A stretch of 32,000 nucleotides of DNA, from assembly GCF_008065095.1 (NCBI RefSeq), contig NZ_CP042911.1:7860001-7892000 (forward strand), given 5' to 3'. Below the pieces are notes generated by a model. That model had not been told where the DNA came from. It worked only from the letters and a program-made list of their open reading frames with translations, and did not search any database. Below are positions 9,282 to 29,402 of this stretch, one piece after another. How positions within the stretch are numbered: position 1 is the stretch's first letter; each line of letters opens with the position of its first letter. The position numbers and the translations under genes are program-made. Source of the stretch: Gemmata obscuriglobus. Lineage in GTDB: Bacteria; Planctomycetota; Planctomycetia; Gemmatales; Gemmataceae.

Positions 9282-10628
9282 TCAGATCTTCAGAACGCCG
9301 GTGCTGTCGCCGAACGCCTTGGCGGGCGCCCCCATCCGCTCGAACAGCGCCAAGTACAGGTTCGTTAGCGGGACATCGGAGCGTTTCGGGAACACGATGT
9401 GCCGCCCGCCGGTGATCGTACCGCCGCCCTTGCCCGCGAGCAGGATCGGCAGGTCGTCGTGGTTGTGCCGGTCCCCGTCGCCGATCCCGCTGCCGTACAC
9501 CAGCATCACGTTGTCCAGCAGGCAACTGCCGTTCGGCTCCTTCACGGCCTTCATCTTGCCGACGAGGTACGCGAACTGCTGCATGTGGAACGCGTTGATC
9601 TTCGCGATCTTCTCCAGCTTCTTCGGGTCGCGGCCGTGGTGCGACAGGTCGTGGTGCCCTTCCGGCACGTCGATCATCTTGTACGGGCGGTTGCTCCCGT
9701 CGTTGGCGAACGGCAGCGTGGCCACCCGGGTGAGGTCCGTCTGGAAGGCCAGCACCATCAGGTCGGCCATCAGCCGCATGTGGTCCTGGACCTCCTTCGG
9801 GATGCCGGTCGGGGCCGCCATGTCCGGCTTCGCGACCGGCTTCTTGTTCGCCTCGCGCGCCTTCTGGATCTGGAGTTCGACCTCGCGGACGCTGCTGAGG
9901 TACTCGTCGAGTTTCTTCTGGTCGCCGGAGCCGAGCGTCGCGTTCAGCCCCTTGGCGTCTTCCATCACGAAGTCGAGGACGCTCTTGTTGTACAGCTCGC
10001 GCTTGGCCCGCGCCTCAGCAAGCTCCTTTGGGTCGTTGCCGCTGAACAGCCGCTCGAACACGGCCTTGGGGTCGCACTCCTTGGCGTTGGGCGTCGATTC
10101 GCCGCGCCACGACAGGTTCGAGGAGTACGCGCAGGAGTAACCGGAGTCGCAGTTGCCGGCCTGCTGGCCCCGCTCGATGCCCAGTTCCAGCGACGGGAAC
10201 CGGGTCTGGTCGCCGATCACGCTCGCGACGTGCTGGTCGGCCGACATGCCGGCCCGGATGTCCGCGCCGTGGGTCTTGCGGGGCTGGCGGCCGGTGAGGA
10301 ACGCGGACATCGCCCGCGCGTGATCCCCGGGGCCGTCGCCGTTGGCCCGGGCCTTGTCGAGCGCCAGGCCCGAGATCACGTTCACGTACTCTTTATGCGC
10401 GTTGAGCGGCTCTAGGATGCCGGTCAGTTCCGACAGCGCGCCGGTCGCGGACGGCGTCCACTGGGACATGTTCACGCCGTTGGGCACGTACACGAACGCG
10501 AGCCGCTTGGGAGCAGCCGCGGCCACCGAAGACGCCGGCGCGGCTGAAGCGAACGATTCGAGGAACGGCAGCGCAATGGCCGTTCCCAGGCCCTTGAGTG
10601 CGGTCCGGCGGGAAATGGACTTCGGCAT
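9282..10628 (-). CDS. DUF1552 domain protein with twin-arginine signal
   Basis: 448 aa. N-terminus MPKSISRRTALKGLGTAIALPFLESF is the typical Tat-type start of DUF1552 proteins. Sits downstream of a DUF1592-type gene, the usual pairing. Confidence 0.9.
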   Translation of the reverse strand: MPKSISRRTALKGLGTAIALPFLESFASAAPASSVAAAAPKRLAFVYVPNGVNMSQWTPSATGALSELTGILEPLNAHKEYVNVISGLALDKARANGDGPGDHARAMSAFLTGRQPRKTHGADIRAGMSADQHVASVIGDQTRFPSLELGIERGQQAGNCDSGYSCAYSSNLSWRGESTPNAKECDPKAVFERLFSGNDPKELAEARAKRELYNKSVLDFVMEDAKGLNATLGSGDQKKLDEYLSSVREVELQIQKAREANKKPVAKPDMAAPTGIPKEVQDHMRLMADLMVLAFQTDLTRVATLPFANDGSNRPYKMIDVPEGHHDLSHHGRDPKKLEKIAKINAFHMQQFAYLVGKMKAVKEPNGSCLLDNVMLVYGSGIGDGDRHNHDDLPILLAGKGGGTITGGRHIVFPKRSDVPLTNLYLALFERMGAPAKAFGDSTGVLKI

Positions 10629-10761
10629 TGGCAGCTCGCTGTGAGGCGCCCCCGCCCTTGCGGGCGAGGTGATCGGTTTCGGGTGTGATTCGATCGTCGG
10701 TCGGCAGGTCGATCTCGGTGGCAGGTCGGGTTAACAACACAGTTCGTCGGTCGGCACCAGG

Positions 10762-15501: not shown

Positions 15502-16362
15502 TCATTCGGCCAGAAATGCCCGCACCGCGGCGGCCGTGGCCCCGGGGTGCGTGTACTGTGGGTAGTGGCCGCAATCTTGAAACTCCACCCGGCGCACGTC
15601 CCGCAATCCGCGTGCAAGAACCGCCTCGCAGCCCCACGGTACGATCCGGTCCCGGTCACCGCCGATCAGGAGCACGGGGGCGGCGATTGTAGGCAGCAGC
15701 GGGCGCAGGTCGAGCGAATCGAGTGCCACCGCCCGCCGGGCCGCGGCGCGGATCGGGGTCCGGCCGTTGCAGTCCAGGAACAGCGCGCGTGCCAGCGGCG
15801 AACACCCGCCCCAGGTCGCGGGGCAGGCGCGCCGCATCGCGAACTCGCGGAACGGGAGTTCGCACAGCCGCCCGTCCCAGTAGCGGCCCTGACGCGCCCC
15901 GAACCGCTCGTACCACCGCAGCGGGCGAAACGCGAACCCGCCCTTCAGCACACACTTCGTGAACCGCTCGGGGCGCTCGGCCAGCGCGCGCAACGCGACC
16001 GTCGTGCCGAACGACGACCCGAGCAGCGCCACGCGCCCCAACTTCAGGTGATCGAGCAGAGCGTAAAGGTCGGAGGTGAGGTCGCGGTGCCGGTACGCGC
16101 CGAGCCGCGCGCCGTCGTCGAGGCCGTTGGGCAGCTCGTAAGCCACGCAGGTGAAGTGCGGGGCGAGTTGGTGCATCACCATCGCGAACCCGCGCACCGC
16201 GTCCGACAGCCCGTGCAGGATCACGAGCGGCGGGCCGCTCCCCCAGACGGTCAACCGCAGGAGGTAACGGCCCGTGTCGAGCACCGCGTGGGCGCCCTCG
16301 TGCGCCAGCGCCCCCACCGCGTCGCGGCACCCGGCGTCGGTCACGTCGGGGCGGGCCGTCAC
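15502..16362 (-). CDS. Alpha/beta-fold hydrolase
   Basis: Motifs PLVILHGLSD and the nucleophile-elbow-like LLGSSFGTTVAL, plus C-terminal LLIGGDRDRIVP..DCGHYPQ. Start is placed at GTG 16362, which overlaps the upstream stop as GTGA (alternative GTG 16344). The track's longer version to 16653 overlaps the lectin gene and is Arg/Gly-rich. Confidence 0.8.
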   Translation of the reverse strand: MTARPDVTDAGCRDAVGALAHEGAHAVLDTGRYLLRLTVWGSGPPLVILHGLSDAVRGFAMVMHQLAPHFTCVAYELPNGLDDGARLGAYRHRDLTSDLYALLDHLKLGRVALLGSSFGTTVALRALAERPERFTKCVLKGGFAFRPLRWYERFGARQGRYWDGRLCELPFREFAMRRACPATWGGCSPLARALFLDCNGRTPIRAAARRAVALDSLDLRPLLPTIAAPVLLIGGDRDRIVPWGCEAVLARGLRDVRRVEFQDCGHYPQYTHPGATAAAVRAFLAE

Positions 16363-16838
16363 TTCACCGGTTCGATCTTCCACAACTGCTTCTTCGCCTT
16401 CGCGTCGGCTTTCTTCTGAATGATGCGACCCTCGTCGTCCACGTCCAGCACCAGCTCGCTCAATTTGCTCGTGATGCGGCGCTCCGCGTCCTTCTCCTCC
16501 CACGTCCAGCGCTGGTTGTCGGCGTCCTCGTCCTTCGCGTCCCAGACGATGATCTGCACGCCCTCGTCCTTCGACGCCTCGAACACGTCGAGCGCCTTGC
16601 CGCTCTTCACGTTCACCAGCGAGAAGGACTTCCCGTCCTTCTTGATCTCCCACTGCTGGGCCTTGTTGGCCGGATCGGTCTTGGCGAGCGCGGCGCGGGC
16701 GCCGGCCTCGTCGGAGTCGTCGACGACCGCGAGCACCTTGCCCGTTTCGACGTTCACGATCCGGACCTTTTCATCCGCGGCCAGGGCGGGAACCGCGAGC
16801 AGACCGCAGGCCGTGAGGGCACAGAGCGAACGCAACAT
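16359..16838 (-). CDS. Secreted ricin-type beta-trefoil lectin domain protein
   Basis: Start is placed at ATG 16838 (MLRSLCALTACGLLAVPALAADEK signal peptide), preceded by AAGGAGAA. Three QxW repeats are present (QQWEI, QRWTW, QLWKI). Confidence 0.8.
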   Translation of the reverse strand: MLRSLCALTACGLLAVPALAADEKVRIVNVETGKVLAVVDDSDEAGARAALAKTDPANKAQQWEIKKDGKSFSLVNVKSGKALDVFEASKDEGVQIIVWDAKDEDADNQRWTWEEKDAERRITSKLSELVLDVDDEGRIIQKKADAKAKKQLWKIEPVK

Positions 16839-17022
16839 GTGAGTTCTCCTTGTCAGCGTGTCCGAAGTGCGAGAGCGAACGCGCCGGGCCGAAAGTAAGA
16901 CGTGCAGCGTCGACCCGGGCGGTGGTGATTGTAGGACATCCGCGGAAGAGCGGTCAACGCGCCGGGAAGCGGCCCGGGCGAGTTTCACCGAAACGTCACT
17001 GAATTAAGAGTGTGAAGAGGGT

Positions 17023-17107
17023 TGGCCACAAAAAAGCACAAAGGGCACCAAGACACAAGCAGAACGAGAGCAGAAGAGAAATGGCCGCAAAAAAGCACAA
17101 AGGGCAC
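17023..17107. repeat. Two 26-nt direct repeats (25/26 identical) 59 bp apart in a low-GC spacer
   Basis: TGGCCACAAAAAAGCACAAAGGGCAC at 17023-17048 and TGGCCGCAAAAAAGCACAAAGGGCAC at 17082-17107. Confidence 0.9.
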
Positions 17108-17479
17108 AAAAGGAAACCGAAGACGAAGAGCTGTTCTGAAGGCGTGTGACTTCGCGTCCGTGCCCGAGGTACACTTCCCCGAGGAGATCAACTACGCCAC
17201 CGTGCACAAGGAACGGGCGAGCGGGGCGTGGTAAGGATCGAGGAGCGGATCGCGCGGGGCACGACGAAGGGCGTGGCCCAGACGAACGGCACCGGGGCGC
17301 GCCCGTTGGCGCGGCTGAGGTGCCGACGAGCGGGCGTGCGCCAAGCCGCCCCGACGGGTGGCCGAGACGATGCCCCGCTCGCGCCGAGCTGGCGCGGATC
17401 GCGCGCGCCGTCACCCGGCGGCCCGCGACCGACGCGAGAATGAGCGAGCCGTCGATCTGCGCGCGAGCGCGCGTCGGCC

Positions 17480-18418
17480 TCACTCCCCGTCGAGCAGGTC
17501 CGTCCACCGCGGCACGAGAATCGTGAGGTCGGTGGTGTCGAACGCCCCGAGCAGTCGGTCCGTGCGGAGCGACAGTCGGTGCCGCAGCGGAACGCTCGGG
17601 AGCGCCGCGGGGACCACCTGCACCCCGCTCCCGGCCGACACCGCGATCGCGTGCTCGCCGGCCCGGACGACGACCACGCGGCGGGTCGCCGCGGCGCCCG
17701 GCAGGCCCACCCACCGGGCCGCGTCCGCCAGGGCCAGCGGCCGGCCGCGCACCGCGATGAGCTCGCGGACGTGCTCGTCCGCGGCGGCGACCGGGCTGCC
17801 GACGGGCACATCGCACACCTCATCCACCGCCCCCACGGGCAGGCCCAGCGCCACCGCCCGCCCGTTCGGGCCGGGCACCTCCGTGCGGGCGAACGTGAGG
17901 AGCCGGTCGACCCCGCCCGTACCGCCGGACCGGCGCACCTCGGGTCGCGGGGCCGGCCGTGCCGGGGGGGGCGGCCCCGGCTCGTGGGCGGGGTCGAGCG
18001 CGTCCACGTTCAGAAGGCCCACCGGCCCGTGCCCCGACAGCACGACCCCGTGCAGCAGCCGCGCCGCGGCGGCGCCCAGGCCGGGCGGGGGCGGGACCAC
18101 CTCCCCGGCCGACACGCGGGCCACCGGCGCGACCCGGTCCACCAACAGCCCGAACCGCCCGCGCGGCGTCGCGACCAGGATCACCTGGCCGCCCGCCCGG
18201 GGGACGGTCGGCCCGCCGGAGAACCACCACGCCAGGGGGAACACCGGCACCCCGGCGCCGCGGACGACGAGCCGGCCCGGCTCGGTCTCGGTCGGGGCGG
18301 CGGCCAGTTGCTCACCCCGCTCGACCCCGACCACCTGGGCCAGGTCGATCCCGACGGACGCGTCACCGACCGCGCACCGGAGCCAGTTCACCGTGTGGCG
18401 CGCCTGCACTGCGACCAT
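17480..18418 (-). CDS. cheW: Tandem CheW-CheW coupling protein (ChpC position)
   Basis: Two CheW-like halves: WLRCAVGDASVGIDLAQVVGVER..VILVATPRGRFGLLVDRVAPVARV, and RLLTFARTEV..LGLPVGAVDEVCDV..LIAVRGRPLALAD..RVVVVRAGEHAIAVS. ATG 18418 sits 1 nt after the cheB stop and is preceded by GGGGAGAAG. Confidence 0.75.
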   Translation of the reverse strand: MVAVQARHTVNWLRCAVGDASVGIDLAQVVGVERGEQLAAAPTETEPGRLVVRGAGVPVFPLAWWFSGGPTVPRAGGQVILVATPRGRFGLLVDRVAPVARVSAGEVVPPPPGLGAAAARLLHGVVLSGHGPVGLLNVDALDPAHEPGPPPPARPAPRPEVRRSGGTGGVDRLLTFARTEVPGPNGRAVALGLPVGAVDEVCDVPVGSPVAAADEHVRELIAVRGRPLALADAARWVGLPGAAATRRVVVVRAGEHAIAVSAGSGVQVVPAALPSVPLRHRLSLRTDRLLGAFDTTDLTILVPRWTDLLDGE

Positions 18419-18419
18419 T

Positions 18420-19487
18420 CTAACTTCTCCCCGCCAGCCGGGCCGCGATCCCGGCCGGCGTGTCACACTCGTCCACGGCCCCGAGCTGAACGGCCCGGAG
18501 CGGCATCCCGTACACGGCCGACGAGTCCTCGTCCTGGGCGAACGTGCGCCCGCCGCCGGCGCGGATGGCGGCCAGCCCCCGCGCCCCGTCCTCGCCCATG
18601 CCGGTCAGCAGCACGCCGGTGGCGCGGCCCCGGAACGCCCGGGCCGCGGACTCCATCGCCACGTCGATGGACGGCCGGTGCCCGCTCACCGCCGGGCCGC
18701 CGTTCAACCGCACGCGGCCGTCGGCGCCCAGCACCGCGTGGCGGTCCCCCGGGGCCACCAGCACCGTGCCGGGCTCGAGCGCCTCGCCGTCCCCCGCCTC
18801 GCGGACGGGGAGCCCGGTCTGCCGGGCCAGCAGCTCGGCCAGCGACCGCGTGAACCGGGCCGGCAGGTGCTGCACCAGCAGCACGCCGAAGGGGGGCGGG
18901 GCGGGGAGCCCGGCGAGCAGCTCGCGCACCGCCGGCGGCCCGCCGGTGGACGCCCCGATGACCAGCACCGCCGGGGCGGCCCGGTCCAGGGCGGCCCGGT
19001 CCGGGGCGGGGCGGGACCGGGGGGCCGCCGGCACACCGGGCGCCCCGCCCACGGCGGGGCGAGGCGGCAGGGACCGCACCGTTTTGACCCCCGCCGCGGT
19101 CCGCACCTTGGCGACCAGCGCCCGGGCGAACTCGGCCGGGTCCGTGTCGTGCCCCGGCGCGTACTTGGTGAGCACGTCCACCGCCCCCAGCGCCAGCCCC
19201 TCCACCGTCTGCCCCGCCGCCCCGCGGCTCAGCCCGGAGAGGAGAAGCACCGGGGTCGGGCGGGTGGCCATGAGCCGCTCCAGGGCCGCCAGCCCGCCCA
19301 TCCCGGGCATGTCCAGGTCGAGCGTCACCACGTGCGGGAGCAGGCCGGTGAGCCGCGCGAGGGCGGCCTCGCCGGAGTGCGCGAGCCCGGCCACCTCGAT
19401 CCCCGGGGCGGCCGCGAGGTACGCGGCCAGCGCCCGGCACACGGTGGGCGAGTCGTCCACGATCAGGACGCGGATGGGCGGTGCCAT
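18420..19487 (-). CDS. cheB: Chemotaxis response regulator protein-glutamate methylesterase
   Basis: REC domain (VLIVDDSPTV, TLDLDMPGMGG) plus esterase triad context: VIGASTGGPPAV (Ser), LLVQHLPARFT (His), LTGMGEDGARG (Asp). Confidence 0.93.
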   Translation of the reverse strand: MAPPIRVLIVDDSPTVCRALAAYLAAAPGIEVAGLAHSGEAALARLTGLLPHVVTLDLDMPGMGGLAALERLMATRPTPVLLLSGLSRGAAGQTVEGLALGAVDVLTKYAPGHDTDPAEFARALVAKVRTAAGVKTVRSLPPRPAVGGAPGVPAAPRSRPAPDRAALDRAAPAVLVIGASTGGPPAVRELLAGLPAPPPFGVLLVQHLPARFTRSLAELLARQTGLPVREAGDGEALEPGTVLVAPGDRHAVLGADGRVRLNGGPAVSGHRPSIDVAMESAARAFRGRATGVLLTGMGEDGARGLAAIRAGGGRTFAQDEDSSAVYGMPLRAVQLGAVDECDTPAGIAARLAGRS

Positions 19488-19494
19488 GGGTGAC

Positions 19495-22400
19495 TCACGG
19501 GCGGGCGCCGGGCGCGGCCGCGGAGCGGGACACCTGGCGCAGGATGTCGAGCAGGTTCTGGTCCTGGTACGGCTTGACCACGTACGCCGAGGCCCCGAGC
19601 GCCAGGGCCTTCCGCCGGTGCTTGTCCGCCGCCCGCGAGGTGAGCACGGCCACCGGCAGGCGCGCCAGGTGCGCGTCCGCCCGGACGGCGGCGAGCAGCT
19701 CGTACCCGTCCATCCGCGGCATCTCGACGTCCGTGAGAACCACGTCCGGCAGCGCCCCGCCGCGCTGGAGCAGCTCGAGCGCCTCGAGCCCGTCCTTGGC
19801 GACCGCCACCTGCCACCCGGCCCCGCCCAGCAGGCCCGACACCACCCGGCGGACGCTGGGGGAGTCGTCCACGACGAGCACCGTGAGGCCCGCCTTGCCG
19901 GGGGCCGCGGCCGGGGCCGGCCCGCCGGCCCCGCGGGCGGCCGGGGCCGCGCCCCCGCGGACCAGGTCGGCCGGGCTGAGGATGAGCACCACGCTCCCGT
20001 CCCCGAGCAGCGTCGCCCCGGACACCCCGGGCAGCCGCCGGAGCTGCTGGCCGAGCGACTTCACCACCACCTCCCGGCCGCCGACGAGCTGGTCCACCGC
20101 CAGGGCGGCGCGCCGGCCGGCCACGTTCAGCACGACCACCGGGGACCGGGGCGCCGCCTCCTCGTCCGCCCCGCGCAGCCCGAGCGCGCGCGCCAGCGGG
20201 ACCAGCGGGACCACCGCGGCCCCCAGCCGCAGCACCGGCGCCCGGCCCACCCGGTCCACGTCCTCGTCCCGGGCCCGCATGATGTGCTCGACCGCCTCCA
20301 GCGGGAGGGCGTACGTCTGGCCGGCCGCCCGGACCAGCAACCCCCGGATCACCGCCAGGGTCATCGGGATGCGGATGGTGAACGTGGTGCCCCGGCCGAA
20401 CGCGGAGGCCACCGCGACCGTCCCCTTCAGCGCCTCCACCTTGGTCTTCACCACGTCCAGCCCGACGCCGCGCCCGGACAGCTCGGACACCTCCTCGCGG
20501 GTGCTGAACCCGGGCCGGAACAGGTACTCGGGGAGCTGCTCCTCGGTCAGCGCGGCGGCCTCCTCGGCGGTGACCAGCTCGCGCCGCACCAGCGCCTCGC
20601 GCACCCGCTCGAAGTCGATCCCGCGGCCGTCGTCGGCGACCGTGAGGGCCACGTTGTTGCCCTCGTGCGCGGCCCGCAGGGTGATCCGCCCGGCGGCCGG
20701 CTTGCCCAGCGCCAGCCGCACCTCGGCGGGCTCCAGCCCGTGGTCCACCGCGTTGCGGAGCAGGTGCATCAGCGGGTCGGCCAGCGCCTCCAGCACCGTC
20801 TTGTCCAGCCCCGTCCGCTCCCCCTCCAGCACCAGCTCGGCCGGCTTGTTGGCGGTGCGGGCGGCGGTGCGGACGGCGCGGTGCAGCTTGGCCGCGGCGG
20901 TGGCCAGGGGCACCATCCGGAGCCGCATCAGCTTGTCCTCGGTCTCGCTCGTCAGCCGCGCCTGGCGGGTGAGCTGGCCGTCGAACTCGGACAGCAGGTG
21001 CCCGAATTCGCCGAACACGGTCTGCACGTCGGTGCTGGTTTCGGCCAGCTCGCGGGTGAGCAGGTGGAACTCGGTGTACCGGTCGAGCTCCAGCGCGTCG
21101 AACCCGTCGCCGTCGCCGTACCCGTCGCCGTACCCGCCGCCCCCGCCCGCGCGGCTGCCGGCCAGCGCGCTGGCCTCGTACCCGATGCTGAGCCGGTCGG
21201 TGACGCGCCCCAGCCGGGCGGTGGCGGGCCGGGCCTCGCCCAGCAGGCGGGCGAACTCGGTCACCCGCTGCTCGAGGGCCGTGCGGGTGATCACCAGCTC
21301 GCCGATCAGCTTGGCCAGCTCGTCGAGCCGCCGGATCGGGACCCGGACGTACGCCTCGGCGGCCTCGCGCGCCTCCTGGGCCGCGACCGCCGGCTCCGGC
21401 TCCGGCTCCGGCTCGGCGGCCTCCGCGTCGGCGGCGGGCGCCGGCGCGGCCGGCGGGGGCGCGGCGGCGCCCAGGGCCGCCGTCAGCCGGGCGTGAAGGT
21501 CGGCGAACCCGCTCGGGGCGCCCGCCCCTTCGACCGACTCGGCGATCAGGTCCGCGCCGGCGATCAGCAGCTCGACCTCCCCGGCGGTGGCGACCCGCGC
21601 GCCTTCGTAGTACAGGTCGAGCAGGTCCTCCATGCGGTGCGCGAGCTGGGTCACCTGGTGCAGCCCGACCAGCCCGGCGGTGCCCTTGAGGCTGTGGGCG
21701 GCCCGGCGGATCGCCTGCCACCGCTCGCCGTCGGCCGGGTCCTCGCGCGCCTCGGGGAGCAGCGTCACCAGCGTCCGGATGTGGTCCTCGGACTCGGCCC
21801 GGAACACCGCCATCAGCTCGGGCGTGATGCCGGCGCGGCCGGCGCCGCGCGGCTCGGGGGCGGGGGCCGGCTTGACGACCGGGGCCGCCGCACCGAAGTC
21901 CGGCGGGGCCAGGTCCGCGCCGGGCCCCAAGGCCGCGAAGTCCGGCGGGGCCAGATCGGCGCCCGCGGGCGGTGCCCCGAAGTCCGGCACGTCCGGAGCC
22001 GGCCCGGGTGCGGTCTCAAAGTCCGGCGGGTCAAGGGCGCCCTCCGCCCACGGGGGGGCGGCGCCCGGTCCGGCCGGCGCGCCCTCCGGGGGGACGGCCG
22101 GGCGGTCCGGGCCGCGGCCCTCGTCCCCGGTGCGGCCGTCCGCGGCCGGCGCGGCGGGCGGCGGGGCCGGCGGGCCGGACCGGGTCCGCGACCGCAACTG
22201 CTGCGCGTGGCCCAGCGCGGCCGCGGCCAGTTCCGGCTGCCGGTCCGCCCCGCCCCGCGCCCCGGCGAGGTACGCTTCGATGTGGGCGATGCTGCCCTCG
22301 ATCCCGTCCAGCAGCTCCGGCGTGGCCTCGTCCGGCTCGTGCATCAGCAGCTCGACCACCTCCTCCAGCGCGAAGGCGAAGTGGCTCAGCTCGGCCAGGC

Positions 22401-22572
22401 CCACCATCGACGACGCGCCCTTGATGATGTGGACGCACCGGTACGCCTCGTGCAGCACCTCCGGGTCGCCCGGGCCGGCGCGCAGCGTCGCCACGCCGGC
22501 CCGGATGGCCGGCAGGTAGCCGGCCGCCTCGGCGACAAACCCCAGGATCAGCTCGCGGTTCAGTTGCGACAT
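19495..22572 (-). CDS. cheA: Hybrid CheA histidine kinase: Hpt-Hpt-dimerisation-HATPase-CheW-REC (ChpA-like)
   Basis: Hpt1 AYRCVHIIKGASSMVG. Hpt2 RRAAHSLKGTAGLVG. Dimerisation region VRVPIRRLDELAKLIGELVITR. N box HLLRNAVDHG. G1 ADDGRGID. G2 GRGVGLDVV. CheW-like domain LLVRAAGQTYALPLEAVEHI. C-terminal REC (VLVVDDSPSV, LTDVEMPRMDG, YVVKPY). Confidence 0.93.
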   Translation of the reverse strand: MSQLNRELILGFVAEAAGYLPAIRAGVATLRAGPGDPEVLHEAYRCVHIIKGASSMVGLAELSHFAFALEEVVELLMHEPDEATPELLDGIEGSIAHIEAYLAGARGGADRQPELAAAALGHAQQLRSRTRSGPPAPPPAAPAADGRTGDEGRGPDRPAVPPEGAPAGPGAAPPWAEGALDPPDFETAPGPAPDVPDFGAPPAGADLAPPDFAALGPGADLAPPDFGAAAPVVKPAPAPEPRGAGRAGITPELMAVFRAESEDHIRTLVTLLPEAREDPADGERWQAIRRAAHSLKGTAGLVGLHQVTQLAHRMEDLLDLYYEGARVATAGEVELLIAGADLIAESVEGAGAPSGFADLHARLTAALGAAAPPPAAPAPAADAEAAEPEPEPEPAVAAQEAREAAEAYVRVPIRRLDELAKLIGELVITRTALEQRVTEFARLLGEARPATARLGRVTDRLSIGYEASALAGSRAGGGGGYGDGYGDGDGFDALELDRYTEFHLLTRELAETSTDVQTVFGEFGHLLSEFDGQLTRQARLTSETEDKLMRLRMVPLATAAAKLHRAVRTAARTANKPAELVLEGERTGLDKTVLEALADPLMHLLRNAVDHGLEPAEVRLALGKPAAGRITLRAAHEGNNVALTVADDGRGIDFERVREALVRRELVTAEEAAALTEEQLPEYLFRPGFSTREEVSELSGRGVGLDVVKTKVEALKGTVAVASAFGRGTTFTIRIPMTLAVIRGLLVRAAGQTYALPLEAVEHIMRARDEDVDRVGRAPVLRLGAAVVPLVPLARALGLRGADEEAAPRSPVVVLNVAGRRAALAVDQLVGGREVVVKSLGQQLRRLPGVSGATLLGDGSVVLILSPADLVRGGAAPAARGAGGPAPAAAPGKAGLTVLVVDDSPSVRRVVSGLLGGAGWQVAVAKDGLEALELLQRGGALPDVVLTDVEMPRMDGYELLAAVRADAHLARLPVAVLTSRAADKHRRKALALGASAYVVKPYQDQNLLDILRQVSRSAAAPGARP

Positions 22573-22591: not shown

Positions 22592-23416
22592 TCACGCGGT
22601 TCGGCGGTACAGCCAGGCGTCCGGCAGGCGGACCAGCTCCAGCCCCGGGGTGTCGAGCCCCAGCGCCTCGGCCGGCCCGAGCACCAAACAGCCCCCCGGG
22701 GCCAGGGCCGCGGTGAGGCGCCGCAGGATCTCGCCCCGCGCCTCGGGGCGGTAGTAGATCAACACGTTTTGGCAGAAGATCACGTCTTGGGGCGGCCGCG
22801 CCGGGCCGCCCCCGAGCAGGTCGCACGGCTCGAACCGGGTGACCGCCCGGAGGTCCGGCCCCACCCGGTACCCGGCCGGGGCCGCCTCGAAGAACCGGCG
22901 CAGCACCCCCGGGGGCACCGCCGCCAGCTCGTGCGCCCGGTAGCACCCGGCGCGGGCGCGCTCCAGCGCCGCGGGGCTCCGGTCCGTGCCCACCACCTCC
23001 ACCTGCCACCCGGCCAGCCCGGGGTCCGACAGGCAGGCGATCCCCAGCGAGTACGCCTCCGGGCCGGTCGAGCACCCGGCGCTCCACAGCGCGACCCGCG
23101 CGCCCCCCTCCCGCCGCCGCCGCTCGCGGGCCGCCGGCAGGGCGAACCCGGTGAGGGCCGCGAACGCGGCCGGGTCGCGGAAGAACCGGGTGTCCCCGTT
23201 CAGCAGCCCGTCGAGCAGCCGGTCCCACTCGGGGGCCGCCGGGCACGCCGCCAGGTGGCGCGCGTACTCGGCGGGCGCCGCGAACCCGCACGCCCGGGCC
23301 CGGGCGGCCGCCACCTCGCCCAGGACCCGGGCCCGCGCGCCGCCCAGGGACATCCCGGAGCGCTCCTCGACCGACTCGCGCCACCGGGCGAACTCCGCGT
23401 CGGTCAGCTCGACCAT
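22592..23416 (-). CDS. cheR: Chemotaxis protein methyltransferase
   Basis: Motifs FFRDPAAF, SAM-binding LWSAGCSTGPEAYSLG, and VIFCQNVLIYY. GGAGGG lies before the ATG. Confidence 0.92.
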   Translation of the reverse strand: MVELTDAEFARWRESVEERSGMSLGGARARVLGEVAAARARACGFAAPAEYARHLAACPAAPEWDRLLDGLLNGDTRFFRDPAAFAALTGFALPAARERRRREGGARVALWSAGCSTGPEAYSLGIACLSDPGLAGWQVEVVGTDRSPAALERARAGCYRAHELAAVPPGVLRRFFEAAPAGYRVGPDLRAVTRFEPCDLLGGGPARPPQDVIFCQNVLIYYRPEARGEILRRLTAALAPGGCLVLGPAEALGLDTPGLELVRLPDAWLYRRTA

Positions 23417-23437: not shown

Positions 23438-25744
23438 TTACGCGAGTTGCTTCTTCCGGGTCCCGTTCTTGCCCGCCGGGGCGGCCGGCTCGGCCTGCAC
23501 CATCATGTGCGCGGGGAGCCGGAACGCGCTGAGCGAGCCGCGCAGGTCGTCGGCCAGCCGGGCCAGCTCGTTCACCGCCTCCGCCGTCTGCTTGGTCCCG
23601 GCCGCCGTGCTCTGGGTGATCTGGCTGACGTCGGACATGGACCGGGCCAGCGACTCGGACCCGCGGGCCTGCTGCTTGGACGCCAGCGAGATGGACTGGA
23701 TCAGGTCGGCCAGTTTGGCCGCCACGTCCTCGATCTCGCCCAGCGACTGGCCGGCCTGGTTGGCCACCTTGGACCCGCCGACCACCTCCTGGATGCTCCG
23801 CTCCATCGCGGCCACGGCCTCGTTCGTTTCGCCCTGGATCGCCCGCACCAGCACGCTGATCTTCTTCGTCGCCTCGGTGGACCGCACGGCCAGCCGCTCG
23901 ACCTCCTCGGCGACCACCGCGAACCCGCGGCCCGCGTCGCCCGCCGCGGCGGCCTGGATCGACGCGTTCAGGGCCAGGATGCTGGTCCGGTCGGCGATGT
24001 CGTCGATGAGCTGGACGATCTGGCCGATCTCCTGCGAGGTCTCGCCCAGCCGCTTGATCCGCTTGGCCGTCTCCTGGGCCTGCTCGCGGATCCGGTTCAT
24101 GCTGTCGATGGTGTTGCGCACGGCGGTGTTGCCCTGCTTGGCGTTCTGGAGCGCCTGCTGGGCGACCGTGGTGGAGACGGCCGCGTTGTCGGACACCTGC
24201 TGGATGCTGGTGGCCATCTCGTCGATGGCCGCGGACATGTTCACGATCTGCTCGGCCTGGGTCTCGGACCCGCCGGCCAGGTGCTCGGCCGACGAGTGGA
24301 TCTCGGTCGCGGCGCTGGACACGTGGCGCGTGGCCGACTGCACCCGGCTGATGATCTTGCGGAGCTCCTCGACCGTGTAGTTGAACGAGTCGGCGATGGC
24401 CCCGGTGATGTCGGCGGACACCTCGACGTCCTTGGTCAGGTCGCCGGTGCCCACCCCGCTCACCTCGTCCAGCAGCTTCATGATGGACCGCTGGATCTCC
24501 TCCTTCTCGCCCCGCGACTGGATCAGCACCAGCGTGTTGTCGAGCATCTTGTTGAGCGAGCCGGCCATCGCCCCGAGCTCGTCCTCGGACGCGACCGCGA
24601 CGCGGGTCGTGTAGTCGCCCGCCTCGATCTTCGCGAACGTGGCGCTCAGCCCGTCGACCTGCCGGGTGATGCTGCGGGTCACGACGAGCACCACGACGCC
24701 CACGACCATGAGCCCGACCGCGATCCCGGCGATCGAGGTCCAGTTGGTGTACCGGTCCCGCGACACCCGCTCGGTCAGCAGTTCGACCAGGAGCGGATCG
24801 ATGGCGTCGAACAGCTTGTACGCGGCGGCGGCGGCGGCGTTCGCCTTGTCGTAGTACACGCCCTGCGACTGCTTCACGGTGTCCGCGCCGAGCAGCTCCT
24901 CGCGGACCAGAGCGACGTACGCGTCCACCTGCCGGGTGTGCTCGTCGAACGCGGGCCGGAGGGCGGCCGCCAGCCTCGGGTTGTACCGGACCGCGCTGTC
25001 GATCTGGCGGCGGATGTCGCTCCGGGCGTCGTCGATCTGGCTGAGCAGCACGGCCAGATAAATTCGCTCGTCGAGGGTCAGCGTGTTCTTCAGGTCGTTG
25101 TTGTTCGCTTGCGCGCGCAGGAGCACGGCGTTGGCCTTGCCGCGGATCTGGCTGATCGCGTCCGCCTCCGTGAGCGCCTGCTGCGTGAGGATGCTCTGCA
25201 GGTAGTAGGCGTCCACCTGAGAATCGAGGGCAAGGCCGGCGAGTTCGGCGATGTCCCGGCTCAGCTCGAACACCTTGGCGATCAGCGCGTTGTGCCGCTG
25301 GAAGCTGACCGCGTCCTCACCCACCTGGTAGCCGGCAACGGCGGCCCTCAGTGCGCCCCACTCGTCACGAACGGCGGCCACCCGCCCGGCCAACTTGAAC
25401 TCGTCCTTATCGGCAGCCAGGGCCGCGTCGAGTTCGTTGAGGCTTGCGTCAACGTCGGCCGCCGCCCGGTTCCGCTCGGCGGTCCGCTCGGCGGCCCCGT
25501 TGAGAATCTCGCGCGTGTTCGCCCGGTGCTGGGTGAGCTGCCGGCTCAACTGTTTGATCGGCCGGAGCATCTCCAGGGCCCGCAGCTCCCGCTTGGTGTT
25601 GTCGATCGCGTCGTTGCTCTTGCGGACCACGACCGAGGTGAGGAACACGATCGGGAACAAGAACGGGACGGCGATGAGGGCGCACTTCTGCCAGACCTTG
25701 AGGCGCCGGAAGCTCACCAGTTGGGGCAGTCGGATCTTGGCCAT
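23438..25744 (-). CDS. Methyl-accepting chemotaxis protein with a large helical periplasmic sensor (PilJ position)
   Basis: TM1 [19 protein letters not shown]. About 290-aa helical ectodomain. TM2 [23 protein letters not shown] domain ([24 protein letters not shown]). Conserved signalling tip [43 protein letters not shown]. Confidence 0.93.
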
Positions 25745-25832: not shown

Positions 25833-27617
25833 TCAGGCGGGCGCGGTCGTGTCGGCTTCCGCGGCGGCCAGCAGCTCCGCCGGCGCGAGGCGGTGGACCA
25901 GGCCGCCCGGGTCGACCGTGACGCCGGTCAGGAACCGCGCGAGGTGCGCGTCGGCTGGCGCGGCCGGCGCCGCGGCGTCCAGCGCCCGGATGCCGGCGAC
26001 CTCGTCCACCAGGAGGCCCAGCGGGCTGTCCCCGGCAGCGCCGTGCATCACGACCAGCCGGGCCGCGGTGCCCGCCGCGGGCAGGCCGAGCAGGCCGGCC
26101 AGGTCCGCCACGGTCACCACGTCCCCGCGGACGTTCGCGACCCCGGCGACCCACCCGGGCACCCCCGGGAGCGGGGTGAGCGGGAGCCGCTGGCGGACCT
26201 CGCGGACGCTCTCGATCGGCAGGGCGAGCGTGCGGCCGGCGGCCCGGACGACCAGGTGCCGGTCCCGGCCGGTGCGGCGGGCCGGCGCGGCCTCGGCGGC
26301 GCCGAAGCCGGCGCCCGGGGCGAGCGGGGCGGGGGCCAGCCCGGCGAGCAGCTCGGCCAGGGACGCCCCGGCCGCCGACCGGTTCACCTCGCAGGCGAGC
26401 GCGCGCTCGGCGGCGGCGGCGGGCGCGCCGGGAGCCGTGACCGCCGCCGTGAGCCGCAGCCGCCCGGGCGCGAACCCGGCCAGCCGGGCGGTCTGGCGCC
26501 ACGATCCGCCGGGCGGCAGGTCCGCGGCCGGCCACTCGACCCGGTCGCCGGCGATCGAGAGGGTGCCGCCGGCCGAGGCCGAGCGGAACAGCAGTTCGTC
26601 GGGCACCGAGAGGGTCACGCGCGCGCCGGCGGCGGGCGCGGCCCCGCGGTTCGTGACCAGCACCTCGAAGGTCGCCTCGTCGTCGGTCGCGATCCGGTCG
26701 GGGGCGCCGAGTTCGACCGCCAGTTCGACCGGCGGCGGCGCGACCTCAATGACCGCCCGGCCCGCGGGGCCGTCCGCGGCGGCCGCCTCCACCGCCCACC
26801 GGACCGGGTGCCCCGCCGCGGTCAGCAGCAGCTCGGCCGCCCGGGACTCGCCGGCGGCCAGCGGCGGCAGGGCGACTTCTGCGACGCACGGGCCGCCCGG
26901 CCCGTCGGGGCGTGCCCCCACCCGGACCTCGCCGCACGGGGCGGCGCCGGTGTTGGTCACGGTGAGCGGGAGCGCCGGGCGGCCGGCGGGGTCGAACGCG
27001 ACCGGGCCGCAGGACAGGGCGAGGGCAGGCGCCGGGACCGGGCGGAACGCGACCAGCGCGGTCCGCGGGGCCGCGACGAGCGGGGCCGTTTCGGGGGTGA
27101 TCGGGAACCGCACCGCGAGGGTGACGGCGGCGCCGGGCCGGAGCGCGCCCAGCTCCCAAACGAGCCCGGCGGCGGTGCGGCGCGACGGGCGCGTGGCCTG
27201 GACCCGCGGGACGCCCCGCGGCAGCGGGAACTCGACCCGGCACTCGTGGGCGACCGGGCCGGCGGGGGCCGTGACGGCGAACCGGTACAGCGCGTCGCCC
27301 GGCGGGTCCGTCGGGGCGTGTTGCACCGCGAGCGGGGAGACCGCCCAGTCGCGCGGCGCGGGGTCGCGCGGCGGCGGGGTCCGCACCGGCTGCGGCGTTT
27401 CGGTCAGGGCGGTGGGCGGCGCCGGCGGCTCGCCCGCGGTCGCCCCCGCGGGAGCGGCGGGCGGCGGGACCGGTTGCGGGCCGGGGTCCGCCGCGCCCGA
27501 CGGCGCGGCACCGGGATCGGTGGGATCGGACGGCAGGCCCGGCAGCGGCAGGCCCGCGAACAGCGGGAGGTCCGCGCCGGGGGCGGTCAGCCAATCCGGG
27601 AGATCGTTCGGCGTCAC
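25833..27617 (-). CDS. cheW: CheW-domain protein with about 450-aa N-terminal proline-rich and DUF11/CARDB-like repeat extension (PilI position)
   Basis: C-terminal residues about 452-590 form a CheW fold (HLVVRAAGRTLALPIESVREV..VAGVANVRGDVVTVADL..LGLLVDEVAGIR). Residues about 100-410 contain three Ig-like repeat candidates; the clearest is VELAVELGAPDRIATDDEATFEVLVTNRGAAPAAGARVTLSVPDELLF..GDRVEWPAADLPPGGSWRQTARL. GTG start. No signal peptide or TM helix is visible. Confidence 0.85.
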   Translation of the reverse strand: MTPNDLPDWLTAPGADLPLFAGLPLPGLPSDPTDPGAAPSGAADPGPQPVPPPAAPAGATAGEPPAPPTALTETPQPVRTPPPRDPAPRDWAVSPLAVQHAPTDPPGDALYRFAVTAPAGPVAHECRVEFPLPRGVPRVQATRPSRRTAAGLVWELGALRPGAAVTLAVRFPITPETAPLVAAPRTALVAFRPVPAPALALSCGPVAFDPAGRPALPLTVTNTGAAPCGEVRVGARPDGPGGPCVAEVALPPLAAGESRAAELLLTAAGHPVRWAVEAAAADGPAGRAVIEVAPPPVELAVELGAPDRIATDDEATFEVLVTNRGAAPAAGARVTLSVPDELLFRSASAGGTLSIAGDRVEWPAADLPPGGSWRQTARLAGFAPGRLRLTAAVTAPGAPAAAAERALACEVNRSAAGASLAELLAGLAPAPLAPGAGFGAAEAAPARRTGRDRHLVVRAAGRTLALPIESVREVRQRLPLTPLPGVPGWVAGVANVRGDVVTVADLAGLLGLPAAGTAARLVVMHGAAGDSPLGLLVDEVAGIRALDAAAPAAPADAHLARFLTGVTVDPGGLVHRLAPAELLAAAEADTTAPA

Positions 27618-27656
27618 GTGCGGCCCCGAGGGTTCGGCGGAAGGGTGCCCGGCCCC

Positions 27657-27686
27657 TTGATAATTATCGAATAGTAATTTTAAAAA
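27657..27686 (-). promoter_or_regulatory. AT-rich (4/30 G+C) intercistronic spacer with the perfect palindrome GATAATTATC; possible internal promoter or operator
   Basis: TTGATAATTATCGAATAGTAATTTTAAAAA lies directly between the cheY-like stop (27687-27689) and the GC-rich leader of the CheW-fusion gene. The palindrome is at 27659-27668. Confidence 0.3.
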
Positions 27687-28052
27687 TCAGTACAACCGAG
27701 TCACATTTGTGATCAACTCGTCGCTCGCGAACGGCTTGGTGAGGTACGCGTCGGCCCCCTGCTTCATGCCCCAGAACTTGTCCGCGTCCTGGTTCTTGGT
27801 GGTCAGCATGAGCACCTTGATGTGCTGCGTCTCGGGCGCGGACTTGAGCTGTCGGCACACCTGGTAGCCGTTCTTCTTGGGCATCACCACGTCCAGCACA
27901 ATCAGGCGGGGCTGCTCGCGCCCGGCCTTCTCGATGGCCTCGTCGCCGTCGGCCGCGGTGATCACGCGGTACCCCTTGGCCTGGAGCGCGGAAACCACCA
28001 CCCGCTGTTCGGTGGGGCTGTCGTCTACCACGAGGATCGTGTCGTTCGGCAT
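27687..28052 (-). CDS. cheY: Single-domain CheY-like response regulator (PilH position)
   Basis: Start is placed at ATG 28052 (MPNDTILVVDDSPTEQ), preceded by CCGGAGA. Phospho-acceptor context IVLDVVMPKKNG, then LMLTTKN and AYLTKPF. Confidence 0.9.
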   Translation of the reverse strand: MPNDTILVVDDSPTEQRVVVSALQAKGYRVITAADGDEAIEKAGREQPRLIVLDVVMPKKNGYQVCRQLKSAPETQHIKVLMLTTKNQDADKFWGMKQGADAYLTKPFASDELITNVTRLY

Positions 28053-28067
28053 CGAAGCATCTCCGGT

Positions 28068-28108
28068 TGAAAGAACAAAAGGCGGGTCGCCCGCGCCGGC
28101 CGTCCGCC
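28068..28108 (-). terminator. Terminator/attenuator-like GC hairpin plus T tract between the first and second operon genes
   Basis: The minus strand reads GGCGG-ACGGCCGGC-GCGGG-CGA-CCCGC-C followed by TTTTGTTCTTTC. Outer arms are 28104-28108 / 28081-85, with a nested GCGGG/CCCGC 5-bp stem. It lies 14 nt after the upstream stop and is immediately followed by the cheY RBS. Confidence 0.35.
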
Positions 28109-28121
28109 GGCGCGGCACGGG

Positions 28122-29402
28122 TCAGCCCGGCGGCGCCTTCGCGATCGGGGCCAGCCGGGTCACGGTTTCCAGCAGCTTGTCGGCCTCGAACGGCTTGGTC
28201 ACGTAGTCCGCGGCCCCGACCCAGCGGCCGTGGAGCTTGTTCAGCAGCCCCGTCTTGCCGGTCAGGAACACGACCGGCACGGTGGCCGTCTCGGCCGTGG
28301 CTCGCAAGAACTTGCACAGGCCGAACCCGTCGATCCCGGGCATGTTGATGTCGAGTATGAACAGCTGCGGCGGCCCCGAGTCGCGGACCAGCCGGGACGC
28401 CTCCTCGGCGCCGTGCGCGAGGACCACCGAGTACCCGGCGGCGGTGAGGAGGCTGGACACCATCATGCGCACCGTGGCGCTGTCGTCCACGACCATCACT
28501 TTGGGGCCGGGGGCGGGGGCCGGGGCCGGGGCGCTCTCGGCGCGGGCCGCGCCGGCGCCGGTCTCCCGCTGGGCACTGAGGAACCGGACCGCGTCGGCGC
28601 GCCACGGCGGCCCCGGCGGCGCGGCCTTTTGGACCGCCGCCTGAAGCGCCCGGACCGCGAAGTCGGTGTAGCCGAGGTTCAGGTAAGCGAGGCCCAGGGC
28701 GTGGGCCGTGTCGGCGCTGGGGTCCGTGGTCCAGGCGGCCTTGAGACGCCGGGCCGCGGCCTCAACGAGTGCCCGGTCGACCCCGGGGGCCGGGGCGTCG
28801 AACAGTTCGGGCCGGTCGAGGGCGGTCACCGCCCCGCACCCCGGGCAGGTGGTGGTGACGGTGTCGTCGGCCGCCGCGGAGTGCTCGCACAGCGGGCAGC
28901 GCCAGGGGGGGGCCGGGGCGGGCCCGAGCCGAGCCCGCAGCTTCGCCAGCCCGGCCTTGGCCTGGGCGCTGGCGGGGTTGCGCTTGAGCACCTGTTCGAG
29001 GAACGTGATCGCGGTGCCCGGGTCGTCGGTGACCCCGGCGCGCCACAGCCAGGCGGCCTCGTTGGTGGCGTCCAGTTCCGTCGCCTCGGTGAGCAGTCGC
29101 GCGGCCGCCGCCCGGTCGTTCGCCCGGGCGGCCTCCACCCCGGCCCGGAACACGGCCTGCGGCAGGGCCGCGAGGGCGGTCGGGTTGCTGGCGTTGAGGT
29201 TCAGCGTGGCCCGGATCCCGATCAGCGCGTCGACCGGCTTTTCCGCGGTGCTGGCGTACCAGAGCCAAGCGGCTTCGTTCCGGGGGTCCCGCTCAGTGAT
29301 TTCCCCGAACAGCGCGTGCGCGCGGGCCTTCTCGCCGCCGTGGGCGGCCTTCATGGCCTCGCGGAGCAAGTGGACCAGCTTTGGCGACATTGACGGCTGC
29401 AT
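28122..29402 (-). CDS. TPR-like repeats + CxxC..CxxC zinc ribbon + C-terminal REC response regulator (PilG position)
   Basis: 426 aa. Two DP(R/T)NEAAWLW TPR-like signatures. Zinc-ribbon motif WRCPLCEH..TTCPGCGA (28836-28898). Ala/Pro linker. REC domain at 28125-28502 (VMVVDDSATV, FILDINMPGIDG, VVFLTGK, YVTKPF). Confidence 0.88.
   Translation of the reverse strand: MQPSMSPKLVHLLREAMKAAHGGEKARAHALFGEITERDPRNEAAWLWYASTAEKPVDALIGIRATLNLNASNPTALAALPQAVFRAGVEAARANDRAAAARLLTEATELDATNEAAWLWRAGVTDDPGTAITFLEQVLKRNPASAQAKAGLAKLRARLGPAPAPPWRCPLCEHSAAADDTVTTTCPGCGAVTALDRPELFDAPAPGVDRALVEAAARRLKAAWTTDPSADTAHALGLAYLNLGYTDFAVRALQAAVQKAAPPGPPWRADAVRFLSAQRETGAGAARAESAPAPAPAPGPKVMVVDDSATVRMMVSSLLTAAGYSVVLAHGAEEASRLVRDSGPPQLFILDINMPGIDGFGLCKFLRATAETATVPVVFLTGKTGLLNKLHGRWVGAADYVTKPFEADKLLETVTRLAPIAKAPPG

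Follow-up and report, generated by a model that had tools for sequence, protein, structure and literature searches.

A planctomycete CheW family with a conserved N-terminal motif and predicted cytoplasmic Ig-like domains in a Pil-Chp-like chemosensory cluster

We analysed a 32,000-nucleotide stretch of the Gemmata obscuriglobus genome (contig NZ_CP042911.1, positions 7,860,001 to 7,892,000 of the forward strand; hereafter the window) and found that the CheW protein at the PilI position of its chemosensory cluster, the long CheW, is the product of a conserved fusion. Ahead of the CheW domain it carries a short phi-P-x-W-L motif, a proline-rich tether and three immunoglobulin (Ig)-like domains, which by sequence and predicted structure are of the DUF11/CLIPPER-CARDB (E-set) kind. 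Sequence comparison indicates that this layout is conserved in planctomycetes, and that the motif is conserved on a par with the CheW domain and more strongly than the Ig-like domains, pointing to a putative docking role. With moderate confidence we propose that the long CheW is an array-anchored docking arm, in which the CheW domain would insert in the baseplate while the Ig rod and the tether would present the motif (Table 1).

The assignment of the CheW domain was supported by several methods. The reading made from the sequence alone had placed a CheW at the PilI position with its fold confined to the last 140 residues or so, and Pfam, AlphaFold2 and Foldseek agreed on this point. The Pfam CheW model (PF01584) matched residues 454-586 (E=4.3e-27, 94.9 bits against a cutoff of 23.5) as well as 7 of 7 close homologues. 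The CheW part also matched the CheW structures of T. maritima and E. coli in phmmer searches, and 2HO9 and 1K0S when the family profile was used (E=1e-24). AlphaFold2 modelled residues 452-591 at a predicted local distance difference test (pLDDT) score of 82-96, and the model together with the Foldseek matches showed the two-subdomain, SH3-like beta-barrel fold of CheW. Structural matches included 2CH4_W (TM 0.85, root mean square deviation 1.8 A) and E. coli CheW within core signalling units (6S1K_C and 8C5V_E, TM 0.80-0.84), with deviations of about 2 A across the three. In a 44-sequence family alignment, which has a mean column identity of 25%, residues P484, W489, G492, N495, R497 and G498 were invariant, and the N495/R497/G498 block aligned to N-L-R-G in solved CheW structures.

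The region upstream of the CheW domain was resolved into a disordered and a folded part. Residues 1-95, described as Pro/Ala-rich in the sequence-only reading, indeed contain 31% Pro and 17% Ala, and residues 1-88 were disordered in the model (pLDDT about 31-52), as was the linker at 428-449 (about 41). Between them AlphaFold2 predicted beta-sandwich domains at 92-193, 199-292 and 299-410, with pLDDT rising from 80-90 when 7 sequences were supplied to 86-98 with 44 family members, at which point the mean over the protein was up to 83.6. In the Pfam scan of the whole protein, DUF11 matched residues 307-395 (E=2e-9, 38.2 bits, cutoff 24.6), accompanied by weak CARDB and NPCBM_assoc matches, and the score for NCBIfam TIGR01451 was below threshold. 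When the repeats were scanned separately, the third still exceeded the DUF11 cutoff (29.9 bits, E=7.5e-7), the first fell below it (15.2 bits, E=0.028), and the second gave weak CARDB/DUF4232 matches with no match to DUF11; the Pro-rich N-terminus scanned on its own gave no match. By sequence, therefore, one of the three repeats (Ig3) is certified as DUF11. The proposal of three Ig-like repeats thus holds for the fold of all three and for the identity of the third as a bona fide DUF11 domain, but the first two remain under the DUF11 threshold; disorder across residues 100-410 together with the lack of any significant Ig-like or DUF11 match, which would have undone the proposal, was not found.

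Fold comparison pointed in the same direction. In Foldseek the Ig part resembled tandem Ig-like modules of a generic kind, among them the leg domains of integrin, alpha-2-macroglobulin MG domains, RbmA, ciliary central-pair proteins and the C-terminal domains of both protein 4.2 and transglutaminase. At Ig2, the family profile matched 3IDU and 2KL6, structures of uncharacterised proteins that we take to be CARDB domains (E about 1e-7), as well as the C-terminal Ig domain of protein 4.2. The Ig region used as a single-sequence query returned no match among Protein Data Bank (PDB) sequences, and the CLIPPER crystal structure 9IFR was not among the top 50 Foldseek matches of the whole-chain query. 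Taken together, the predicted domains and the Ig-like E-set fold matches are consistent with the Ig-like (CnaA-like) beta-sandwich of seven to nine strands that characterises DUF11/CLIPPER.

A trivial origin of the extension was also considered, namely an annotation artefact in which the true product is an ordinary CheW of about 150 residues starting near residue 440, and the upstream part is non-coding or a spurious high-GC open reading frame (ORF). The gene lies in a region of 74-82% GC with several long shadow ORFs, starts with GTG and contains further in-frame GTG codons, at codon 411 and elsewhere. However, orthologues align with the long CheW over its full length, N-terminus included, at 45-58% identity, confirming the called frame, and full-length orthologues ranging from 20 to 58% identity keep the motif just after the start, which settles the start codon. 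Furthermore, GC content at third codon positions (GC3) stays at 0.90-0.96 all along the extension (GC1/2/3 of the whole frame are 0.85/0.65/0.96, with neighbouring genes alike), the folds of the extension are confidently predicted (pLDDT 90-98), and the DUF11 match that it contains exceeds the Pfam threshold. A late start, named in the sequence-only reading as a possible undoing of its proposal, or a spurious ORF is effectively refuted by the orthologues with the extension, the N-terminal motif and GC3, and we regard the artefact as practically negligible. The product is 100% identical to the NCBI entry "CheW-like domain protein [Gemmata obscuriglobus]", and the interval 26265-27617 on which the sequence-only reading had focused corresponds exactly to residues 1-451, that is, all of the sequence preceding the CheW domain.

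Conservation along the protein singled out the extreme N-terminus. The motif reads LPDWL at residues 6-10, where W9, P7 and L10 reach 0.96, 0.90 and 0.85, respectively, on the conservation scale of the 44-sequence alignment. Block means on the same scale were 0.53 for the motif, 0.56 for CheW, 0.36-0.40 for the Ig domains and 0.26 for the tether. About 45 of 58 members have the phi-P-x-W-L motif, some of them in duplicate; divergent members carry two copies and a subsequent [DE]-L-P-[DE]-F element. Within the folded arm, W154 of Ig1 is invariant in the 44 sequences, N222 and G224 of Ig2 are about 90% conserved, and N323 is near-invariant. In the short helix that follows the Ig domains, L420 is 89% conserved, and a tblastn match to an acidobacterial locus (L005) begins at residue 402, which indicates that the helix and linker segment (413-451) is conserved beyond planctomycetes.

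We then examined the extent of the family. When 1.84 billion representative proteins (clusters at 50% identity) were searched exhaustively with a profile, many full-length, single-stretch matches of 500-730 residues emerged, and Ig domains followed by a C-terminal CheW were counted in about 60 proteins by phmmer and 80 by domain hidden Markov models. The best matches without CheW were giant tandem DUF11 proteins, which aligned across all three Ig domains together; this evidence fits homology of the inserted Ig domains to the tandem repeats of those proteins. Taxonomy was drawn from a GTDB genome scan with one narrow CheW pattern and from neighbouring planctomycete-type genes. In that scan full-length matches were confined to Planctomycetota (Gemmata, Frigoriglobus, Gemmatales, a Gemmataceae isolate, and metagenome-assembled genomes labelled "Planctomycetaceae" or "Planctomycetota"), and the actinobacterial matches covered the CheW part only. 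The architecture had seemed unfamiliar in the sequence-only reading. We found no paper describing a CheW-DUF11/Ig architecture in the searchable literature, but public databases already hold precomputed CheW and DUF11 Pfam labels for it, so the unfamiliarity extends to published description and not to the databases.

The number of Ig domains varies in the family: 64 members have three, 11 have two and 5 have one. All reduced members retain Ig3 except P0134, which has Ig1 and Ig2, and P0125, a fragment with a partial Ig3, and Ig2 is lost or degenerate in P0003, P0111 and P0030. Some members, such as P0030 (one Ig domain) and P0111, lack Ig1 and/or Ig2 despite an intact N-terminal motif. In P0003, the orthologue from a Gemmata species (L001, 5956-7674), an Ala/Pro/Gly/Glu-rich low-complexity segment replaces the Ig2 beta-sandwich, which makes it a natural, within-genus Ig2-deletion variant. 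Longer members (P0046 with 1052 residues, P0137 with 775, and others) have no additional Pfam domains, and so offered no Rosetta-stone clue to function.

These data also bear on the possibility that the Ig domains are the working part of the protein, a module that senses or specifically binds a ligand or protein of the cytoplasm, with the motif being secondary. Possible targets would include the machinery of type IV pili and elements of the membrane coat or cytoskeleton of the planctomycete cell, and the module would feed localisation or input to the array. In its favour, Ig1, Ig2 and Ig3 keep distinct identities among members only 20-30% identical to each other, W154, N222, G224 and N323 are near-invariant, and the fold matches include partner-binding cytoplasmic Ig-like domains (protein 4.2, the transglutaminase C-terminal domains and ciliary central-pair proteins). 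The conserved residues, however, mostly fit the generic structural signature of DUF11/CARDB (V-x-N-x-G, W-x-L-G), some lineages do without Ig1 and Ig2, and the longer members add no informative domains. We consider a module of this kind quite improbable.

The docking-arm proposal places the Ig domains in the cytoplasm. The sequence-only reading had seen no signal peptide or transmembrane helix, and our survey of the family bore this out. Crude in-house tests of hydropathy and charge, used in place of SignalP, flagged a signal-peptide-like N-terminus or a transmembrane helix in 0 of 58 family members, whose N-termini are all acidic, whereas 29 of 59 giant DUF11-repeat proteins from the same search were signal-peptide-like in the same test. 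In the Gemmata protein the highest Kyte-Doolittle value over a 19-residue window was 1.59, within the CheW domain, and the first 30 residues contain no Lys or Arg and 3 Asp or Glu. CheW must touch the cytoplasmic receptor tip and the P5 domain of CheA. Given this and the lack of an export signal in the family, the Ig-like domains are almost certainly cytoplasmic. The hallmarks of surface or secreted DUF11 proteins, such as a signal peptide and sorting or adhesion domains, were not found, the sole partner domain being CheW.

DUF11 was renamed CLIPPER in 2025, the domain being reported as CnaA-like and as forming the stalks of fibrillar adhesins on the cell surface (PDB 9IFR; PMC12617251), in which a Lys-Asn isopeptide bond is present in many, not all, domains (PMC12617251). 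The whole Gemmata protein contains no lysine, and no column of the Ig-region alignment holds a conserved Lys across the 44 members, so a Lys-Asn isopeptide bond is impossible in the Ig domains of this CheW family. It might still be argued from the description of CLIPPER as a surface stalk domain (PMC12617251) that the protein or its N-terminal part leaves the cell by non-classical export, with the DUF11/CLIPPER domains acting extracytoplasmically as in adhesins and the CheW part moonlighting. About half of the giant DUF11 matches are signal-peptide-like, and the nearest relatives without CheW (P0008, P0162-P0164) have N-termini that by eye resemble signal peptides or those of lipoproteins. Against export stand the complete lack of signal peptides and transmembrane helices among the 58 acidic N-termini, the missing isopeptide lysine that is typical of mechanically stressed surface stalks, and the position of the gene, as the only CheW, in a conserved cytoplasmic signalling operon. 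We rejected secretion as unlikely on the comparison with the giant DUF11 controls, and non-classical export appears very improbable.

The genes around the long CheW form a Pil-Chp-like cluster. Its order in the window is TPR-REC, REC, CheW, MCP, CheR, CheA (two Hpt domains ... REC) and CheB, where TPR is a tetratricopeptide repeat domain, REC a receiver and MCP the methyl-accepting chemoreceptor. The PilG/PilH/PilI/PilJ-type order, together with a multi-Hpt CheA with a C-terminal receiver, is that of the Tfp class, and the long CheW is the only stand-alone CheW in the cluster. The order TPR-REC, REC, long CheW, MCP, (CheR), CheA-REC is conserved in eight related loci (L001-L004, L006, L008, L009 and L040); the loci with this order include that of a member of about 25% identity, on a 411-kb metagenomic contig. 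The CheA of L040 also gave a faint FimL_C match. The Pfam scans of window ORFs revealed no pilus genes, the window MCP lacks a C-terminal xWxxF pentapeptide, and Pfam detected no P2 domain in the window CheA.

Table 1. Predicted features of the long CheW, its chemosensory cluster and adjoining ORFs, in window coordinates
Feature	Coordinates	Strand	Basis
Long CheW gene	25833..27617	minus	GTG start, 594 residues, translated ORF
Residues 1-15: start codon and acidic-aromatic short linear motif (DLPDWLT; consensus phi-P-x-W-L/M)	27573..27617	minus	Alignment conservation
Residues 16-88: Pro/Ala-rich disordered tether	27354..27572	minus	Composition, pLDDT about 31-52, low conservation, variable length in orthologues
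Residues 90-196: Ig-like beta-sandwich 1 (Ig1), degenerate DUF11/CLIPPER-like	27030..27350	minus	AlphaFold2 pLDDT 86-96; absent in some members
Residues 197-296: Ig-like beta-sandwich 2 (Ig2), CARDB-like	26730..27029	minus	AlphaFold2 pLDDT 90-98
Residues 297-412: Ig-like domain 3 (Ig3), bona fide DUF11/CLIPPER (PF01345), isopeptide-free	26382..26729	minus	Pfam; pLDDT 93-98
Residues 413-451: short conserved helix (420-427, LAELLAG), then disordered linker	26265..26381	minus	DSSP; pLDDT 57-65 in the helix, about 41 after it
Residues 452-594 and stop: CheW domain	25833..26264	minus	Pfam, phmmer, family profile, Foldseek
TPR-REC response regulator (PilG position)	28122..29402	minus	Pfam TPR_19, TPR_14, Response_reg
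Single-domain receiver (PilH position)	27687..28118	minus	Pfam Response_reg E=3.5e-27; syntenic in related loci
Methyl-accepting chemoreceptor (PilJ position)	23438..25744	minus	Pfam MCPsignal E=1e-42, HAMP; syntenic
CheR methyltransferase	22592..23416	minus	Pfam CheR E=3.8e-45
ChpA-like CheA (Hpt x2, dimerisation, HATPase, CheW-like P5, C-terminal REC)	19495..22572	minus	Pfam
CheB methylesterase	18420..19487	minus	Pfam CheB_methylest E=1.3e-60 and Response_reg
Alpha/beta-hydrolase ORF, ricin-type lectin ORF and 270-residue ORF	15502-16988 and 17004-17816	minus	Pfam scan

Among the neighbours, the TPR-REC response regulator co-occurred with extended CheWs. A homologue of its TPR part was present in every extended-CheW locus with enough upstream sequence (L001-L006, L009, L022 and L040) and TPR-REC was absent from about 28 actinobacterial loci, whose CheWs are 150-190 residues long and free of the motif. 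Two of the loci with a TPR-part homologue belong to Acidobacteriota (L005 and L022); they share the cluster layout, and their CheW has an acidic N-terminal extension free of Ig domains. The CheW of L022 has 192 residues and starts "...FLLPADWEDD...", and that of L005 has 375 residues with a long, acidic, disordered N-terminus. Since the arrangement of motif plus CheW is also found in Acidobacteriota without an Ig domain, it looks older than the Ig domains, which planctomycetes would then have inserted as a module into a tether that already existed.

Based on these findings, we suggest how a docking arm might work. The CheW domain would insert in the receptor/CheA baseplate as other CheWs do, and the N-terminal motif would be held away from the baseplate by the helix, the Ig rod and the Pro-rich tether. 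There it could catch a partner or fix the array to some other structure. The Ig domains may serve as a semi-rigid planctomycete spacer placed in the older tether, which is supported by the variable Ig count, by the intact motif in members without Ig1 and/or Ig2, and by the Ig-free acidobacterial CheW. Allowing about 4 nm for each Ig domain and adding the 80-residue Pro-rich segment and the 40-residue linker, we estimate from residue counts that the arm could reach roughly 10-40 nm; this would be comparable to the cytoplasmic length of the MCP, itself put at about 25 nm from some 330 residues after the HAMP domain. The idea of the sequence-only reading that the extension might act as a tether, spacer or lattice element fits the conserved motif and the variable Ig count.

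TPR domains typically bind short peptides. For this reason, and because CheA has no detectable P2 domain and its linker has xPDF motifs, the TPR domain of the co-conserved TPR-REC is the best partner candidate for the motif, and docking of TPR-REC at the array might substitute for the missing P2 domain. The CheA motifs in question are four tandem xPPDF/VPDF elements (LDPPDFET, PDVPDFGA, LAPPDFAA and LAPPDFGA) in the disordered inter-Hpt linker at residues 183-229, and they share a Pro-Asp-aromatic flavour with the N-terminal LPDWL of CheW. Of 9 further planctomycete CheAs, 5 have one or two motifs of this kind, as against 0 of 16 actinobacterial and 0 of 2 acidobacterial ones. As a shared P-[DE]-aromatic signal in CheA linkers they are inconsistent beyond Gemmata and give a weak lead only. 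CheR or CheB as a universal partner of the motif is disfavoured, because L003, L004, L006, L009 and L040 keep the motif although their clusters contain no cheR or cheB. Binding of the motif to the Ig domains of its own protein is likewise disfavoured by L022, where the motif occurs with no Ig domain, and by P0030, where it occurs with one.

The same two proteins bear on a different use of the arm, in which the Ig domains self-associate or bind the motif of a neighbour and thereby tie CheW rings or core units into a reinforced or clustered array, with no reach towards an external partner. Tandem Ig-like domains commonly make homotypic contacts, Ig1 offers candidates for a conserved surface, and the motif duplicated in some members would give multivalency; in addition, the CheW-like variant ParP-AIF promotes array formation (PMC5706961). 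On the other side, the persistence of the motif without Ig (L022) or with one Ig (P0030) makes an Ig partner unlikely, and of the folded parts of the protein the Ig domains show the lowest conservation. We consider cross-linking of the array unlikely. Going further than the docking arm as such, the long CheW may contain the first described cytoplasmic form of an adhesin-stalk (CLIPPER/DUF11) domain, an isopeptide-free triple-Ig ruler that presents the motif to the TPR domain of its own response regulator, replacing CheA P2, or to a membrane- or pilus-associated structure; this fuller version is offered tentatively and is itself rather doubtful.

Several observations weigh against the docking arm and its proposed partner. 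The acidic extension of L005 has no clean P-x-W-L motif. The co-occurrence with TPR-REC is phylogenetically confounded, planctomycetes and acidobacteria standing against actinobacteria, and REC, MCP and CheA are likewise present in all loci. The xPDF motifs are missing in several planctomycete and both acidobacterial CheAs. The invariant Trp of Ig1 and several other conserved positions could mark a specific binding surface, or else the structural signature of DUF11. Finally, most family members are metagenomic and only a part of them is taxonomically placed, and the calls of signal peptides and transmembrane helices rest on crude hydropathy and charge tests.

Further features of the cluster and its surroundings were noted. 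TPR-REC carries a zinc-ribbon-like CxxC...CxxC insert between TPR blocks at residues ~166-195 (WRCPLCEH...CPGCGAV), which is conserved in L001 and L003 and in both acidobacterial loci (L005 and L022), and its TPR-like repeats bear an unusual 'DPxNE.AW.WLA' signature. Some relatives, L005 (4128-4970) and L040 (8715-9410), have an additional gene that separates TPR-REC from the single-domain REC and is absent from the window; by eye, the L005 product (MAIEGNLRDMSLPNIVQIL...) resembles PATAN/DUF4388, which would recall cyanobacterial PixG/PilG-type systems. A second CheW of about 300-340 residues lies directly 3' of CheA in several related planctomycete clusters, namely L003 (12026-12976), L004 (12508-13476), L006 (12580-13476), L007 (5794-6810) and L040 (17531-18478); none was detected in the window, which has cheR, as do L001 and L002, and also cheB. 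The long CheW gene is separated from the PilH-like gene by an AT-rich intergenic stretch (27618-27686; TTTTTAAAATTACTATTCGATAATTATCAA), which stands out from surroundings of 74-82% GC and could be an internal promoter or regulatory site.

The chemosensory cluster is markedly richer in GC than the genes at 5-16 kb of the window, with about 57-68% at 5-16 kb, 73-79% at 17-24 kb and a peak of 82% at 26-27 kb. On the minus strand at 9282-13197, a DUF1552 (HXXSHH) protein is encoded beside an 811-residue PSCyt/PSD2-5/CBM60 protein, and this pair of DUF1552 and PSCyt/PSD proteins, typical of planctomycetes, supports the taxonomic origin. As listed, the alpha/beta-hydrolase and ricin-type lectin ORFs have about 295 nt in common, which makes a wrongly placed start in one of them probable, and the 270-residue ORF just downstream of cheB gave no Pfam match.

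CheW is usually regarded as a minimal single-domain adaptor. The family described here is a conserved, lineage-wide variant with a long structured arm tipped by a putative docking motif, and if the arm recruits a response regulator or anchors the array, it would represent a new solution to partner concentration and array positioning. A cytoplasmic, isopeptide-free DUF11/CLIPPER domain departs from the description of the domain as a surface adhesin and suggests that an extracellular-type module was recruited to intracellular signalling. If the arm presents the motif to TPR-REC or to a membrane- or pilus-associated structure, planctomycetes would have evolved a distinct wiring or positioning of Pil-Chp-like arrays in their unusual, invaginated cell plan. 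The N-terminal motif had previously gone unnoticed; the protein and its domain labels were already in databases. The family settles no long-standing open question but yields testable hypotheses, and genetic tools exist for planctomycetes.

Compared with canonical CheW/PilI proteins (PF01584; T. maritima 2CH4/3UR1, E. coli 2HO9/6S1K, P. aeruginosa PilI), the long CheW is alike in its C-terminal 140 residues, its N-x-R-G motif and the location of its gene between receiver genes and an MCP gene in a CheA-containing cluster. Canonical CheWs, however, are single-domain proteins of about 150-170 residues, to which the Gemmata protein adds an N-terminal extension of 450 residues. That a CheW domain tolerates fusion is known from CheV (CheW-REC), from the tandem CheWs of CheW.II/III and from rare CheW fusions (bioRxiv 10.1101/2022.05.07.491035). 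The partner domains in that survey, which left out architectures with <40 sequences and names no DUF11, are of the signalling type (bioRxiv 10.1101/2022.05.07.491035), whereas here they are adhesin-type Ig domains. DUF11/CLIPPER (PF01345; 9IFR), CARDB and NPCBM_assoc E-set domains are matched by Ig3, which is over the threshold, and by all three beta-sandwiches with their V-x-N-x-G signature. CLIPPER domains are reported to form the stalks of surface or secreted fibrillar adhesins, often locked by isopeptide and disulfide bonds (PMC12617251); those of the long CheW family are, by our analysis, cytoplasmic, have no conserved lysine, number one to three per protein and belong to a fusion with a signalling adaptor.

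The nearest parallel in design is Vibrio ParP, in which an N-terminal domain that interacts with ParC is joined by a Pro-rich linker to a CheW-like AIF domain that integrates in arrays (PMC5706961). ParP-AIF forms its own clade, nearer to CheA-P5, and works alongside normal CheWs (PMC5706961). The logic of a C-terminal CheW-like module, a Pro-rich linker and an N-terminal partner-binding element is alike, but ParP has no Ig domains and its partner is the ParA-like ParC, whereas the Gemmata protein is the only CheW of its cluster and carries a short motif, not a domain, at its end. No gene for a ParA-type ATPase or ParC-like protein was found among the window ORFs scanned with Pfam, and we rejected membership of the ParP family on this ground and on the nature of the N-terminus, a short motif within disorder, leaving an analogy of design only. 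A second parallel lies in the array itself. In MCPs a C-terminal NWETF pentapeptide tethers CheR/CheB, and the P2 domain of CheA docks CheY. Like these, the long CheW would place an aromatic short motif on a flexible array tether and so raise the local concentration of a partner; its motif differs in being N-terminal, in having the phi-P-x-W-L form, in standing behind a folded Ig rod and in persisting in clusters without CheR/CheB.

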